From a virus, in IMG/VR virus record IMGVR_UViG_3300005996_000002, positions 1 through 48,563 of that record: 48,563 bases of DNA. The stretch is one strand, 5' to 3'. Shown here piece after piece: positions 10,099-43,144 of the stretch (positions are counted from its first letter, which is position 1; each line of letters begins with the position of its first letter). The translations under genes and the position numbers were made by a program. The notes under the pieces were generated by a model. That model made no database searches. It worked only from the letters and a program-made list of their open reading frames with translations, and was not told the DNA's origin.

Positions 10099-10296
10099 AT
10101 CACCATTGTTCAAAAAGCGGCAGAGAAGGCGGGGGGCGTAGTTTCGCTCGCACGTGAACTCGGCATCAAACACACGGCTTTCTACTCGTGGAAGCGTGTC
10201 CCTGCGGAGCGTGTGCTTGATATCGAGCGCGTCACGGGCATCGGGCGTCATGAGCTTCGCCCCGACCTGTTCACCACTCCCGAGGTGGCTGAATGA
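10096..10296 (+). CDS. Cro/YdaS-like small HTH regulator
   Basis: 66 aa. GGVVSLARELGIKHTAFYSWKRVP resembles the YdaS/Cro-type HTH. It is divergent from the repressor and is the first gene of the rightward operon. Confidence 0.8.
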   Translation: MITIVQKAAEKAGGVVSLARELGIKHTAFYSWKRVPAERVLDIERVTGIGRHELRPDLFTTPEVAE

Positions 10297-11345
10297 ACAC
10301 GATCAACTTTGATGCAGCGGACGCTCAAACCGGAGAGATCGTAGAAGTTCCTACTGTTGCGGAGCGCCGCCCTACCTGCCTCATCCTGAAAGACGACACA
10401 ACTTACGAGCAGTGGGCCGAAATCGGTCAATGGCTCCAGACTGTCGAGCGGTCGGTTATGTGGTGGATTGGCGACTGGGTTCGTTTTGGGGAGCATCGGT
10501 GGGGCGAGAAGTACGCTCAGGCTATCGAAGCCACCGGTCATAGCTACCAGACGATTGCCGACGCTAAATGGGTAGCAAGCCGGTTCGAATTTTCTCGACG
10601 TAAAGAAAATCTCAGTTTCTCCCTCCATAAGGAGGTTGCTAAGCTTTCGATAGATGAGGCAGACCGGCTGCTTGATAAGGCAGCGCGGGACGGATGGACG
10701 GTCAGGGAAACCCGCGCTCATGCCAACCGCATCAAGAACGAAGCCCGTCTCCCCGCCGCGTGCGCCACTGTAGAAGGCCGCAAGGTATTCGACTTTGAAG
10801 CTCTTGTCCGTAACGGCGAGAAGTTCGGCACCATCTATGCTGACCCGCCATGGCTCTATGACAATCAAGGCACCCGCGCCGCGACGGGCAACCACTACGG
10901 CGGAATGACGGTCGAAGAACTTTGCGCTCTCCCGGTCAAGGATATCGTAGACAAGGACGCCCAGCTTCACATCTGGACTACAAACGGCTTCCTTTTCGAG
11001 TGCCCGAAGATTTTCGAGGCGTGGGGATTTGAGTTCCGTTCGTCTTTCATCTGGGTAAAGCCGCAGATGGGCATTGGCAACTACTGGCGGAATAGCCACG
11101 AGTTTCTGCTGACAGCAATCCGTGGCGATGCCAAGCGGTTTAACGACCGTTCTTTGATGAGCTGGATGCAGTGTGAGCGTGGCGTCCATAGCGCCAAGCC
11201 TGAGCAAGTCCGGCACTTCATCGAAAGGGCTTCTCCCGGCCCGTTCCTCGAAATGTTTGCTCGGTCTGGTTCGCCCAACTGGACCGTCTGGGGCAATCAA
11301 ATCCCCGGCAACCTTCTCGACCACGGCATGGCTGAGGTGGCGTGA
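10293..11345 (+). CDS. MT-A70-family N6-adenine DNA methyltransferase with N-terminal DNA-binding-like extension
   Basis: The catalytic DPPW motif (IYADPPWLYD) and downstream WTTNGF...FEFRSSFIWVK...HSAKP are typical of MT-A70. Confidence 0.88.
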   Translation: MNTINFDAADAQTGEIVEVPTVAERRPTCLILKDDTTYEQWAEIGQWLQTVERSVMWWIGDWVRFGEHRWGEKYAQAIEATGHSYQTIADAKWVASRFEFSRRKENLSFSLHKEVAKLSIDEADRLLDKAARDGWTVRETRAHANRIKNEARLPAACATVEGRKVFDFEALVRNGEKFGTIYADPPWLYDNQGTRAATGNHYGGMTVEELCALPVKDIVDKDAQLHIWTTNGFLFECPKIFEAWGFEFRSSFIWVKPQMGIGNYWRNSHEFLLTAIRGDAKRFNDRSLMSWMQCERGVHSAKPEQVRHFIERASPGPFLEMFARSGSPNWTVWGNQIPGNLLDHGMAEVA

Positions 11346-13175: not shown

Positions 13176-13745
13176 TTGAAAATCCTTTCCTTCGACATAT
13201 CCAAGACCAAAACCGGATGGGCGCTTTGGGACGTTGCGTTTCGAAACGGCGTCCTTCCGGACATGCGCGGCATCAGCGGGATGCGGACAGGATCGTTCAA
13301 GACGGAAGGCGACACGCTGTTTGAAGCGGTGGCGTCGTTCCAGCCTCAATTCGTTCGCGTCGTCAAAGAGTGCAATCCCGACTTCGCTTCATACGAAGAG
13401 GGTCTTCCAAACATCAAGAGCTACGTGGGCGAAGGTGGAAAAGAGTCCGTTAATTCCAGCGCTCTCGTCCTCAATCGTCTTCTGGGAAGCGCACAAGGCG
13501 TCCTTATGGGTCTCAAGACTCCGCATGAAAGCGTCCCTGACCAGACATGGCGCAAGGCGTTCCTTGGCTTTGGCCGGAAGACCGGGTTTTCAAAAGCCGA
13601 TTACAAGCGCGCTGCAAAGGCAATGTGTGACGAGCTCGGCATTGACGCCAAGAACCAGGATGAGGCGGAAGCCGCTGGTGTTTGTTTCTGGACCGCATTC
13701 CACAGCCAGCACCTCAAGAACATGATTTCCGAGGTGGCGGCATGA
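13176..13745 (+). CDS. RuvC-like Holliday junction resolvase
   Basis: N-terminal ILSFDISKTKTGWALWD (first catalytic Asp) and C-terminal NQDEAEAAGV (DE pair), the typical RuvC-fold arrangement. Confidence 0.75.
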   Translation: MKILSFDISKTKTGWALWDVAFRNGVLPDMRGISGMRTGSFKTEGDTLFEAVASFQPQFVRVVKECNPDFASYEEGLPNIKSYVGEGGKESVNSSALVLNRLLGSAQGVLMGLKTPHESVPDQTWRKAFLGFGRKTGFSKADYKRAAKAMCDELGIDAKNQDEAEAAGVCFWTAFHSQHLKNMISEVAA

Positions 13746-13818: not shown

Positions 13819-15306
13819 GTGAGGGCGCTTGATCTGTTTTCCGCAGCGGCCGGCGGTTGGTCCCTTGGCTTGCACCGGGCCGGGTTCGAGACGGTCGCGG
13901 CTTGCGAGTTCATCGACTGGCGCCGCGCGCTTTACCTCCAGAATAACCCCGGCGTCAGGATGTACGACGATGTCAGAACACTCACTGCCGACCAGCTTCT
14001 TCGAGATATCGGGTTTCTGCCAGACATCGTCGTCGGAAGCCCTCCCTGCCAGGACATCTCCAGCGCGAACACAAAAGGCAAAGGCGTTGAAGGCGACCGG
14101 AGCGGGCTGTACTTCGAAGCCGTCAGGATCATCGGAGAAGTCCGACCTCGTTGGTTCGCTCTTGAGAACAGCTCTAATCTCCGAACTCGGGGCGCTGACG
14201 CCGTGCTCGCTGCGCTGGAAGCCATCGGCTACACCTGCTGGGCGTTTGTGGTCCGTGCTTCAGACATCGGCGCCAATCATGAGCGACCAAGATCATGGAT
14301 CATCGGGTGCGACCTCTCCCAAATTGCCGACGCCGATAGCTGGCAACAGCGGGATCAATCGGAGCATGGTGGACGGCGTTCGCGCTGGGCCGAATCGTCC
14401 GAATGTGAAGACACTCATCAATCAGGCGCAGCGTCTTCCAACGCCGATGGCTTCGGACGGGATGAAGGACGGCAAAGGCGGCGGGGCCGGATCGACCTAT
14501 CCATTCCGCAAGATACTGGCCACGCCGCGGGCATCCGGTGCGCACCACGGTCCGGAGATAGCGAAAGCCATGGCAGCGCAGTCAACGGGCGTGTCGCTGG
14601 TCACGCAGATGGAGATGGGCAGGCGCTTAGCCACACCTCGCAAGACGGACGCGGACAGGGGCTTCCGCGGGGACGTGCTGGCTCAGTTGCAGGGGCAGAA
14701 CAACAAGCATGCCGGGATGCAACTCCCGACGCCCACGGCGGCCCGCTACGGCTCTCAGAGCTATCCGGAAGACCCGAGCCGGAAACGCCCGTCGCTGGAG
14801 ACGCTTCTCTCGACGCCCCGCGCATCGGACATGAAAGCGGGCGGGAACGGCGACACGGGCCGGATGGGCACGGTTCGGCATCAACTGCAGAAAGCGCAGG
14901 AAACGCTCCCCACGCCGACGAAACGGGACAAGAGGCTGGACTCCTGGAGTCCAGCCTACGACCGGCGCAAGTCGCCGACGATGGATGCGGTTCTGGACGG
15001 AGCGCAGACGGGCAAGGCCCCGGAGAAGTGGGTCTATGCCCGACAGATAGCGACTATGCTCTCGGACGCCGGGCTGACTGGTCCCTCGATGACCTTGCCC
15101 ATCACCTACGGGTGGATGCTGGGCTATCCGCCTGGGTGGCTCAGTCGCGCATTGCAGTCGGCGGTCCAAGAGGGACTTCTGCGGCATCCCTCATTGTCGA
15201 AGCGTTCGGGGACTCGGTAGTGCCCCAGATTCCAGAGAGCATCGGCAGGGCCATCCTGCGAACCGAAGCGGCATTGTCCGCTGTCTATGGGAGGCAGGCC
15301 GCATGA
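13819..15306 (+). CDS. DNA (cytosine-5) methyltransferase; central part apparently encoded in the +1 frame (see findings)
   Basis: Motif I DLFSAAAGGWSLG, motif IV GSPPCQDIS, motif VI ENS, motif VIII ERPRSWIIG and motif X FGDSVVPQIPESIGRAI are all in this frame. The middle 840 nt translate to low-complexity text here but to seven LPTPxAxD-type repeats in ORF 13829..15220. Confidence 0.75.
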   Translation: MRALDLFSAAAGGWSLGLHRAGFETVAACEFIDWRRALYLQNNPGVRMYDDVRTLTADQLLRDIGFLPDIVVGSPPCQDISSANTKGKGVEGDRSGLYFEAVRIIGEVRPRWFALENSSNLRTRGADAVLAALEAIGYTCWAFVVRASDIGANHERPRSWIIGCDLSQIADADSWQQRDQSEHGGRRSRWAESSECEDTHQSGAASSNADGFGRDEGRQRRRGRIDLSIPQDTGHAAGIRCAPRSGDSESHGSAVNGRVAGHADGDGQALSHTSQDGRGQGLPRGRAGSVAGAEQQACRDATPDAHGGPLRLSELSGRPEPETPVAGDASLDAPRIGHESGRERRHGPDGHGSASTAESAGNAPHADETGQEAGLLESSLRPAQVADDGCGSGRSADGQGPGEVGLCPTDSDYALGRRADWSLDDLAHHLRVDAGLSAWVAQSRIAVGGPRGTSAASLIVEAFGDSVVPQIPESIGRAILRTEAALSAVYGRQAA

Positions 15307-15358
15307 CTCCCTCCCTCTCCCCAGTATCCCGCCTTTACCTGAACAAGGGGATTGCATC

Positions 15359-41104: not shown

Positions 41105-41224
41105 GCCGCATCCTCCGTCTCGTTCTGGGTCGGCAGGAATAGCAGGGTTTCGGCTCATTCAAAATCACAAATCGAAAGATCTTCCTCTGGCCAATCGCCG
41201 GAGAGCTTTGCATTGGAGAAATCA

Positions 41225-43144
41225 ATGACCGTCTTACCTCCTAAAACGATCTATGGCGGTAGCCCGTACAGAGATGATCATGATCCGAACAAGCTTGAGA
41301 TCGTGACCTTTCTGGATTGGGTAGTCTCCATGGTCACGGCCATGGGCTACGCCAATTACCAGCCGTTCGAGACAAAAGCTCTGATGGATGGTGATCTTGA
41401 TCACGACGCCAAGACGCTCGCGGTTGTCTACGACGACGCCGGCAATGAGGGGATCTACATCAAGATCGGGGCATCGGGCTCGGGATCATGGAGCAGGATC
41501 CTCGATTTCCTGCCGGGATCCCAGTTCGTGGCGTTGACCGTCACGGGCGGCACGGTCAACGCGATCGAAGCGACGGCATCTCCGGGGCTTTCCGCTGCTG
41601 ACGGAGTGCAGAAGGCACTGCTGTTCGCACCTGGCACAAACACGTCTACCACGGTGACTGTCGAGGTTGATGGCGTGACCTATCGCGTCAAGACGGCATC
41701 CGGCATTGATCCGGTGGTTGGCGGGATTGTCACGGGCATGCCGCTTGAGGGTGTCGTGGCCAATGGCGGGACATGGTTCCGGCTGACATCCGACCAGGCA
41801 AGTGCGGCCATTCAGGCGGCGGCAGAAGCTGCGGCGGCTGATGCAGAGGCGGCTGCGGCGAGCATCTTGTACAAGACAGCGGCCGACAGGACTGCGCTCG
41901 CTGCCCTCACTCCTGCAAGCGCGGCAATTGTGCATCTCAACGAAGCCAGTGAAGAAAACTGGTGGATCTGGAGGTCGGACGATCTATCCGCCGAGGTCGC
42001 CGGGGACACATCTGACCGGTACGTGCCGCTGACCGGTGACGATGGGTCGGGCGGCGCTTATGTCATGGCGGGTGCCGTGCAAACCGGCAGTTTCTTCAAA
42101 ACCGATACTCCTGCGGCTCGCATTATCCCTATCGCGGATCGGCTCATGGGTGGCGACAGCGTTGCCTATGATGGGACGCAGGGCGCGCTCGCTGAAGGGT
42201 CTTACCAATCGCTGACTACGGGGATAGCGGCGGATTCGACTGCAAGGCTCCCCGGACTCGGTTGGATCGAGCGAAATGCCGGCTTCTCCTGGGCGGTGGG
42301 GCACGGGCAGATTGCTGTTGCTGGTTATGCGCACACACTTGGCGGCACAGCTGGGGCCAGCATTGGTGTTTCTGCCGCCGTTTCGAACGATACAGGTGCT
42401 GCGACAACGGCCAACGCATGGGCCAGGTATGGCGATGCGCAGCGCTGGCCGGGCAGCCTGGGGACGACGTGGGGGGACGAACTCAATATCTCGAACCACG
42501 GATCTACCGTGGACGACAGCGCCTATGGCGCAGACGCAGGCGGCGGTGTCACAAGAGGCCTTGATCTGGCGATTGGTGGCGGCTCTGCTGCAATGGGCCT
42601 GTCCAACCCGGTGTCGGCCGGATACAGGCTCGGCTCGAATGGTGGAACGGCTCGCAAGGGCTTCATCTTCAGCAGCACGGCGCTCTATGACTATGGCGAT
42701 TACAAGATCGCGATCGAGATGGGGGCACGGGCGCGGTTGCAGTGGCTTGCCAATGCCAGCAAGACGCTCGGGGCTTACATCCAGTCGGATGTCAACAGCG
42801 CCTCGGTTGGAATGGGATTGGTTTTCCGGAACAACTCAACCGTGTTTGAGGGCATTGGCGGGGAAGAGGCTTTCCACGTCAATCGGACAGGCAGCGCGGT
42901 GAACTACCTTTATGTCTCGGGCGGCGCGGCCGGCAATGGCCCGACGCTTGGAGTCGAAGGAAGTGATACGAACCCTGATATGCGGATTGTCTTCAAGGGG
43001 ACCGGGACACTCAATTTGGTCAATATCGCAACAGCGACGGGAGCGTCGGCAGGAGGTGGCAGCGCCCTACCGGCTGCACCTGTCGGCTATATGACAGTGA
43101 AGATTGCGGGCTCAAACCGTAAAATCCCATACTACAACACATGA
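41225..43144 (+). CDS. Tail fibre / receptor-binding protein
   Basis: About 640 aa, Gly/Ala/Ser/Thr-rich with an Ala-rich coiled segment. The ATG at 41225 has GGAGA upstream. The TTG at 41213 is an alternative start. Confidence 0.75.
   Translation: MTVLPPKTIYGGSPYRDDHDPNKLEIVTFLDWVVSMVTAMGYANYQPFETKALMDGDLDHDAKTLAVVYDDAGNEGIYIKIGASGSGSWSRILDFLPGSQFVALTVTGGTVNAIEATASPGLSAADGVQKALLFAPGTNTSTTVTVEVDGVTYRVKTASGIDPVVGGIVTGMPLEGVVANGGTWFRLTSDQASAAIQAAAEAAAADAEAAAASILYKTAADRTALAALTPASAAIVHLNEASEENWWIWRSDDLSAEVAGDTSDRYVPLTGDDGSGGAYVMAGAVQTGSFFKTDTPAARIIPIADRLMGGDSVAYDGTQGALAEGSYQSLTTGIAADSTARLPGLGWIERNAGFSWAVGHGQIAVAGYAHTLGGTAGASIGVSAAVSNDTGAATTANAWARYGDAQRWPGSLGTTWGDELNISNHGSTVDDSAYGADAGGGVTRGLDLAIGGGSAAMGLSNPVSAGYRLGSNGGTARKGFIFSSTALYDYGDYKIAIEMGARARLQWLANASKTLGAYIQSDVNSASVGMGLVFRNNSTVFEGIGGEEAFHVNRTGSAVNYLYVSGGAAGNGPTLGVEGSDTNPDMRIVFKGTGTLNLVNIATATGASAGGGSALPAAPVGYMTVKIAGSNRKIPYYNT

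Follow-up and report, generated by a model that had tools for sequence, protein, structure and literature searches.

The described system closest in layout to the locus analysed here is M.EcoHK31I of Escherichia coli HK31, a natural DNA (cytosine-5) methyltransferase (C5-MTase) of two subunits, α and β, for which the original report is said to be that of Lee, Kam and Shaw in 1995. In the usual C5-MTase anatomy, the large domain comprises motifs I-VIII and motif X, and the small domain comprises the variable region and motif IX (PMC3404938). The β subunit of M.EcoHK31I is nested in another reading frame of the α gene (PMC2836561, PMC3404938). Expression of the two chains from separate plasmids restores methylation, removal of the β start codons by changes silent in α abolishes it (PMC2836561), and N-terminal deletions of β weaken α binding, the β N-terminus controlling affinity (PMC2836561, PMC3404938). 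A further α/β enzyme, M.AquI, is split in the variable region into consecutive subunits, one holding motifs I-VIII and half of the target-recognition domain (TRD) and the other holding the second half with motifs IX-X (PMC3404938). Here we analyse a stretch of viral DNA of 48,563 nt (IMG/VR record IMGVR_UViG_3300005996_000002; hereafter the window), in which two same-strand nested genes at positions 13,819 to 15,306 probably encode, together, a heterodimeric C5-MTase of the M.EcoHK31I type.

Two forward frames run open through the locus, open reading frame (ORF) A, or the α gene, and ORF B, in the +1 frame relative to A (Table 1); the third forward frame contains 16 stops. An earlier note on this DNA had described A and B as stop-free, had placed motifs I, IV, VI, VIII and X in A and seven PTP-type units followed by WMLGYPPGW in B, and had estimated by hand that G+C content at third codon positions (GC3) is higher in the +1 frame. 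Each of these descriptions was reproduced. Computed GC3 lay near the hand counts, at 0.70 for B and 0.55 for A in positions 14401-14580 and at 0.825 and 0.60 in 14701-14820; across the whole centre (14306-15140) it was 0.78 and 0.565. The note had also judged such double openness unexpected by chance, and the rest of the window agrees: its 43 other long ORFs meet a +1-frame stop once per 35 codons, and their longest +1 open runs span 48-224 codons, versus 465 at the methyltransferase locus. When the B centre of the window alone was shuffled synonymously, A acquired a mean of 5.9 stops and none of 300 shuffles stayed open.

Relatives were gathered from IMG/VR with only the frame-A N-terminal domain as query, which avoids bias towards B, and this yielded 76 loci of 68-88% identity. 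Some 70 of these have A open all the way from motif I across motif X, and B open over a span that begins at most 133 nt after motif I and passes the motif-IX-like box; their third frame carries 10-23 stops. Comparison with orthologues, which the note had recommended, thus recovered the same two-frame layout, with B as the conserved central frame. Mismatches in pairwise comparisons of 50 unique loci, scored at frame-A codon positions 1/2/3, changed pattern from region to region. Between motif I and the YDD box they were 0.13/0.09/0.53, as in plain A coding, and between the YDD box and motif VIII 0.16/0.09/0.31, that is, A coding with damped synonymous sites. The centre gave 0.40/0.18/0.13, a B-coding pattern in which the B third position varies most, as the note had anticipated in stating that the centre evolves as +1-frame coding sequence. 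At the motif-IX-like box the values were 0.19/0.04/0.05, with B primary and both frames constrained, and at motif X they returned to plain A coding (0.14/0.07/0.47).

The damping upstream of motif VIII follows the B reading. Third-position diversity of A falls from about 0.5 at codons 1-72 to 0.12-0.27 at codons 100-144, over which B reads LVGSLLRTALISEL..L.WK.SATPAGR.W.VL.TS, and diversity at four-fold sites of A over this N-terminal module of B drops from 0.64 to 0.43. The part of B that lies over motifs VI-VIII is a second protein-coding layer. The note had called the 5' end of B meaningless, a description that does not hold: B residues ~59-100 are conserved, constrain synonymous sites of A and form the best-predicted part of B.

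Stops are avoided in both frames as well. Against an expectation from synonymous codon shuffling, a conservative null that reuses the gene's own codons, the centre of 51 unique loci contained no A stop in 8918 codons (176 expected), and the same loci contained a single B stop in the 5892 codons that lead from the YDD box to motif VIII (48 expected). Just 5' of the YDD box, B stops are frequent (44 in 2295 codons), many of them TGA or TAA placed 3-4 codons before the B-frame ATG. Both frames are held open by selection. Over the centre, the α spacer stays stop-free and is unconserved as protein; constraint on two proteins at once is confined to some 45-70 codons of the N-terminal overlap and a further 20 or so around motif IX. 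Genuine dual coding, one of the options in the note, comes closest to this evidence, since both frames are selected and open; its precise form, however, would be two nested genes giving two polypeptides, with dual constraint limited to those short segments.

A candidate start for the second polypeptide is conserved. In the window, the YDDV peptide of α is written TAC GAC GAT GTC and thereby contains the β ATG. The B-frame ATG is present over YDDV in 49 of the 50 loci (35 expected), and 43 combine an ATG with a Shine-Dalgarno-like (SD-like) tetramer placed 5-16 nt upstream, a combination for which synonymous shuffling of frame A predicts 12.4 loci; counting core SD tetramers only, the figures are 33 and 8.3. 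Elsewhere, gene callers place the starts of B-type proteins at the residue equivalent to this ATG: there are 169 close B-type clusters and, in a profile search of 1.84 billion representatives at E<=1e-3, 1348 distant ones, nearly all of which start at the equivalent residue. From its context, ATG 13970 would serve as an independent start for translation of β. The 150 best of the 1348 profile matches included no long single-chain methyltransferase with B-type sequence after motif VIII.

The two chains divide the motifs of a C5-MTase between them. The Pfam profile DNA_methylase (PF00145), a check the note had proposed, matched A residues 1-180 over profile positions 1-177 of 324 (E 8e-33; 114.7 bits, gathering cut-off 22) and left B unmatched; no match to B came from NCBIfam or from PDB sequences either. 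The score of α against TIGR00675 (dcm) was 75 bits, under the cut-off of 100.65. PHROG family phrog_363 matches α residues 1-262 and phrog_1008 matches β (E 2e-21), and 1029 α homologues carry the NCBI name 'DNA cytosine methyltransferase'. AlphaFold2 (AF2) folded α residues 1-186 confidently from 53 homologues, gave residues 188-460 a predicted local distance difference test (pLDDT) score of 27-50, and predicted a C-terminal helix at residues 465-495 (pLDDT 86-88). Foldseek matched the α model to M.HaeIII, the CP-933R prophage methyltransferase and M.HhaI (E 8e-12 to 2e-9) over about 175 columns, corresponding to the large domain only. By substitution pattern and AF2 together, α residues ~167-420 are unconserved and disordered, and the motif X region contains many invariant columns in the α alignment (A4). 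The single α chain thus holds motifs I, IV, VI and VIII and lacks a TRD and motif IX between VIII and X; the IX-like box is in frame B.

The β chain consists of a conserved N-terminal module, an array of cassettes and a C-terminal module. AF2, with 52 homologues, was confident only for β residues 55-100, a helix and hairpin (pLDDT 79-87); the C-terminal helices at 330-410 were predicted with moderate scores and the cassette array fell below 50. A Foldseek search with the β model returned nothing informative (best E 1.2). Across the 50 loci, about 20 types of xPTP-headed cassette are combined into 39 architectures. Near its start, the β sequence LPARTSP of the window lies over the motif IV reading PPCQDIS, so that the SPAKTSA box of relatives is the +1 reading of PCQD(F/I)S. 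At its other end, the β stop (15218-15220) falls within α motif X.

We favour the nested α/β reading because this partition of motifs fits C5-MTase anatomy and because the same layout has been published for M.EcoHK31I. As in that enzyme, the β ORF lies on the same strand wholly inside α in another frame, and α has motifs I-VIII as well as X and β has motif IX, the last by motif-level similarity alone. In the proposed mechanism, α would supply motifs I-VIII, a disordered spacer of about 260 residues, and a pre-X/X helix that completes the large domain binding S-adenosylmethionine (AdoMet). Ribosomes would start separately at ATG 13970, helped by the SD-like AGGA, and end at 15220 to produce β, comprising in order a short low-complexity leader, the helix-hairpin, the seven-cassette array and a helical C-terminal module with WMLGYPPGW. 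The helix-hairpin, encoded over α motifs VI-VIII, probably docks β to α, and the seven xPTP cassettes are candidate target-recognition modules. Association of α and β would give the usual large-domain/small-domain enzyme, with the motif-IX-like box completing the small domain. By analogy with M.EcoHK31I, we infer that both chains are made, bind each other and are both needed for methylation, and that the cassettes read DNA.

The likeness to M.EcoHK31I is one of layout and motif partition, taken from published descriptions and not from its sequence; no protein match named EcoHK31I appeared in our homologue searches, including one with the K1ind2 β described below as query. The shared features include an internal start codon for β, a candidate one in the window, and a β N-terminal part that matters for α binding, the counterpart of which in the window would be the conserved dual-coded helix-hairpin. 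The differences are also clear. The β subunit of M.EcoHK31I has 176 residues, whereas that of the window has 416, starts as early as motif III and includes seven shuffled xPTP cassettes. The TRD of M.EcoHK31I is assigned to α in the literature, whereas in the window the centre is selected in β and the α centre is a disordered spacer. Unlike M.EcoHK31I, which belongs to a restriction-modification pair, the window gene is an orphan in a phage replication module. M.AquI and the artificially split M.SssI, M.HhaI and M.BspRI show likewise that a C5-MTase can work as two polypeptides, and of the artificial splits the best complementation comes from those made between motif VIII and the TRD, the point at which α hands over to β in the window. 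In contrast to M.AquI, the window α holds both ends (I-VIII and X) and β the middle, nested over 1251 nt.

Also comparable are two pairs in cultured phages, gp56/gp57 of Paenibacillus phage Bloom and ORF29/ORF28 of Escherichia phage K1ind2, for which GenBank lists both nested coding sequences, +1 apart, as methyltransferases. Like the window, they have a +1 nested ORF with GS.LR...L.WK..T..., WPTPxAxD units and LNPxxVExLMGFPxGW; unlike it, they are shorter, have 2-3 PTP units and are weakly similar in sequence. The hhalign comparison of their N-terminal modules with the window family gave E 7.5e-4 for Bloom and 6.6e-6 for K1ind2. Our literature search found neither a functional study of the Bloom or K1ind2 pair nor any discussion of how the two genes are nested. 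In modular organisation, the array resembles the multispecific C5-MTases of Bacillus phages (SPR, phi3T, rho11s), in which tandem target-recognising modules lie in single, one-frame polypeptides. In both cases the number of modules between motifs VIII and IX varies and modules are shuffled among related phages; the TRD consensus of SPR, phi3T and rho11s is not known to be related to xPTP. Multispecificity of the window enzyme is, on this analogy, only a lead.

The layout extends well beyond the IMG/VR relatives. A megablast of the locus against phages gave one match, of 163 nt, to Rhizobium phage RHph_X2_25, where both frames are open and the +1 frame reads LPTP units and WMMGYPPGW; both open frames are also present in Rhizobium phages RHph_N2 and RHEph18. 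Both frames were present in every one of the 21 loci that a scan of GTDB found in Planctomycetota, Alpha- and Betaproteobacteria, the smallest having an A of ~250-260 aa and a B with one LLPTPRARDWK unit and LNPxxVEWMMGFPxGWT. For these 21 loci the observed count of 0 stops is partly circular, as the regions were defined from open spans, and only the expected values and the segment with an inserted HNH domain are informative. That segment is in locus L079 (B 1455-2510 within A 1298-2572), where β carries an HNH_3/AP2-like endonuclease domain as an in-frame insertion, across whose 135 codons A stays open (6.1 stops expected; 0 of 2000 shuffles open). A second HNH_3 gene lies downstream in L079, at 2544-2948.

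Distant B-type proteins share the SPAKTSA box, a G.SLRT..L.WK.SATPAGRSWW module, from one to >10 WPTPxAxD units and a C-terminal LNSxWVxQLMG(F/Y/W)PxxW, and distant members have LNPxxVEWLMGFPxGW as the equivalent of the motif-IX-like box. For two distant metagenomic B-type proteins, one of them that of L079, the contigs were located; each protein is encoded in the +1 frame within a C5-MTase gene. A tblastn search with a B fragment reached 86 cultured phages (48 of Paenibacillus, 17 of Escherichia and 7 of Klebsiella, the rest including phages of Salmonella, Lacticaseibacillus and Acinetobacter), and the K1ind2-type B clade numbers 5745 database proteins. Judged from these comparisons, the nested layout is family-wide and old. 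Database naming is uneven: α-type proteins are called 'DNA cytosine methyltransferase', β-type proteins 'hypothetical protein', 'DNA methyltransferase' or 'Mte8-like' (NCBI), some phage records give both nested coding sequences and others one, and the Joint Genome Institute (JGI) call on the present contig is a 284-aa β fragment (P0001). A few relatives (loci L067, L074 and L078; proteins P0016, P0089, P0120 and P0163) are damaged by deletions that remove the centre or fuse A to B. The six A-to-B fusions, which are all of these but L074, were considered as true single-chain relatives and set aside as deletions or errors: they have no common switch point (before PCQ, at ENS or after motif VIII) and each lacks an essential motif.

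The note had reasoned that two shifts, +1 followed by -1, would be required for a working enzyme, and had offered recoding as one explanation. Double programmed ribosomal frameshifting, +1 after motif VIII and -1 after motif IX, would yield a single canonical C5-MTase (I-VIII, TRD, IX, X), and the coding signal does change from A to B and back to A exactly where such a chain would need the shifts, with no more than 7-10 codons between motif VIII and the first LPTP unit. A fixed spacing of 122 nt separates the motif-IX-like box from motif X, and between them A_AAG_GGN, the only heptamer of the X_XXY_YYZ form, occurs in the β frame of 20 of 50 loci, about 56 nt after the start of the box. The same heptamer is absent from the other 30 loci and from the window, which reads CAAGAGGGA at ~15166-15174, and at the junction from motif VIII to the first PTP unit the DNA of the 50 loci varies and shows no slippery, rare-codon or stop element that is conserved. 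A gene with a programmed shift is expected to lose its zero frame shortly past the shift site, and its new frame need not be open ahead of that site; at these loci neither frame is interrupted, and frameshifting is not supported because it would require neither of the two long openings. It leaves unexplained why B is stop-free for 110 codons before the +1 site and A for 170-280 codons after it in every locus, as well as the conserved ATG with its SD and the protein-level constraint on B over motifs VI-VIII. Given no conserved slippery or stall site, both frames open over >1 kb in ~50 loci and a β ATG with SD, the two shifts need not be invoked, recoding is disfavoured, and we regard frameshifting as very unlikely. 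In M.EcoHK31I, silent loss of the β starts kills activity, so β does not arise there by frameshifting (PMC2836561).

Assembly error, or decay of the gene into an inactivated pseudogene, would instead account for the two frames by a pair of compensating indels, as the note had also suggested. The clearly damaged relatives named above show that such lesions occur in the family, but they are few, and the identical layout recurs in ~50 unique viral loci, 21 bacterial genomes and independently sequenced cultured phages, with purifying selection on the fitting frame in each region and stops absent from both. This refutes the explanation by indels and leaves artefact or decay with a practically negligible probability. 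A further alternative is improbable, though less so than frameshifting: α could be a self-sufficient, small 'TRD-less' methyltransferase, overprinted by a β of unrelated function such as anti-defence or DNA binding. The α chain does have all catalytic motifs and a conserved C-terminal module, RVDDGLxxWV...FGDxVVP, that possibly represents motifs IX-X, and β has no detectable similarity to solved structures or Pfam families and a cassette array that looks disordered. Against this, α has no conserved, foldable DNA-reading segment between motif VIII and the C-terminal module, and β is present beside α in every locus examined. The end of β, moreover, matches motif IX in both spacing and residues (LNP-7 residues-GFP-xx-W); the canonical form in M.HhaI and M.HaeIII is LTP-7 residues-GFP-xx-F. 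Methylation by M.EcoHK31I needs its β (PMC2836561).

Several points weigh against a nested heterodimer all the same. With no Pfam, PDB-sequence or Foldseek match for β, its role as small domain or TRD is proposed from the motif-IX-like box and from analogy, and the cassette array is predicted by AF2 with very low scores. The conserved RVDDGLxxWV of α, encoded by the same DNA as the box, could be a degenerate motif IX, and the A_AAG_GGN heptamer of 20 relatives could allow some -1 shift into α motif X. M.EcoHK31I, as described in print, has its TRD in α, whereas the central frame selected here is that of β. Taking these points together with the evidence above, we still hold a nested two-subunit C5-MTase to be probable.

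The nested C5 pair sits in a phage replication and recombination module (Table 1). Three DNA methyltransferase genes, of phrog_359, the nested C5 pair and phrog_67, lie in a 7.5-kb stretch of it, a gene content that marks a heavy investment of the phage in DNA modification. Second in length among the +1 open runs of the window is one of 224 codons in a 643-aa gene at 41213-43144, which contains a nested 208-aa ORF at 42276-42902. The RuvC-like resolvase gene contains a +1 ORF at 13234-13725 (163 aa), with an open run of 181 of 190 codons and 2 stops; this ORF is probably due to chance, because the sole related locus with a resolvase gene (L040) has 3 stops in that frame.

Table 1. Features of the nested methyltransferase locus and its neighbourhood, in window coordinates.
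Feature	Position	Strand	Remarks
Methyltransferase (phrog_359)	10293-11342		
RuvC-like resolvase	13176-13745		
ORF A = α gene	13819..15306	+	495 aa; GTG start preceded by GGGGAGGG; from ORF listing
α catalytic (large-domain) part	13819..14307	+	motifs I-VIII; frame-A substitution pattern
Motif I (LDLFSAAAGGWSLG)	13828-13869	+	α
ORF B	open 13829..15220	+	+1 frame relative to A; 463 aa; from ORF listing
Shine-Dalgarno-like AGGA	13957..13960	+	9 nt 5' of β ATG; from α codons Arg(AGG)-Met, AGG being a rare Arg codon
β gene	13970..15220	+	416 aa, 1251 nt; wholly within α, 84% of α
Motif IV (PPCQ; GSPPCQDIS)	14035-14061	+	α
Dual-coded segment	14144..14269	+	β reads DLVGSLLRTALISELGALTPCSLRWKPSATPAGRLWSVLQTS, predicted helix and β-hairpin, β residues ~59-100; α motifs VI-VIII on same DNA
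Motif VI (ENS; FALENSSN)	14155-14178	+	α
Eighth, related unit PSATPAGR	14222	+	frame B
Motif VIII (NHERPRSWIIG)	14275-14307	+	α
α spacer	14308..15078	+	~260 aa; R/G/D/S/H/A-rich, low complexity; β-coding DNA read in -1 frame
β cassette array	14321..15004	+	seven xPTP-headed cassettes, order T-B-E-C-J-D-A; B frame selected here
xPTP unit starts	14321, 14432, 14513, 14624, 14720, 14804, 14903	+	frame B
α C-terminal module	15079..15303	+	includes motif X; frame-A substitution pattern
β motif-IX-like box LPITYGWMLGYPPGWLSRAL	15095..15154	+	WMLGYPPGW at 15113-15139; overlaps conserved HHLRVDAGLSAWVAQSRI of α
Motif X variant FGDSVVPQIPESIGRAI	15205-15255	+	α; GNAV-type helix; not aligned by Pfam
SNF2-like helicase	15287-16753		starts 20 nt before end of α stop codon (overlap 15287-15306)
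Methyltransferase (phrog_67)	16741-17742		
DnaB-like helicase	17739-19163		

What is already known is the kind of nested gene, from M.EcoHK31I, and the annotation of both coding sequences in some phage records. In the literature searched, we found no other description of the nested layout in phage methyltransferases, and none of its family-wide extent, of the way selection acts on it or of the cassette array; neither the GeneTack frameshift survey nor a paper on out-of-frame remodelling in E. coli mentions a nested methyltransferase layout. In bacteria and phages, long genes nested on the same strand are a rarity and frequently a matter of dispute; the 1251-nt pair described here is supported by unusually clean comparative data and has a precedent validated by biochemistry.

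A broader proposal, to which we lend slightly less than even credence, is that the nested layout may be the rule for a large phage and prophage clade of 'short, TRD-less' C5-MTases (at least 1348 β clusters at 50% identity, from Firmicutes phages to Planctomycetota), with the TRD residing in the hidden β frame as a recombining xPTP array. If so, each cassette may carry its own specificity, and the 'variable region' of α would be only the stop-free shadow of β. The TRD assigned to M.EcoHK31I α would then be mis-assigned, and thousands of database entries would represent half an enzyme. Heterodimeric methyltransferases have served as a starting point for engineered targeted methylation tools (PMC2836561). 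If the layout is family-wide, many 'orphan' cytosine methyltransferases of phages would have two subunits, of which annotation usually gives one or calls the other 'hypothetical', and their shufflable specificity cassettes would evolve under the added rule that the other frame stays open, offering a natural system for two proteins sharing the same DNA.

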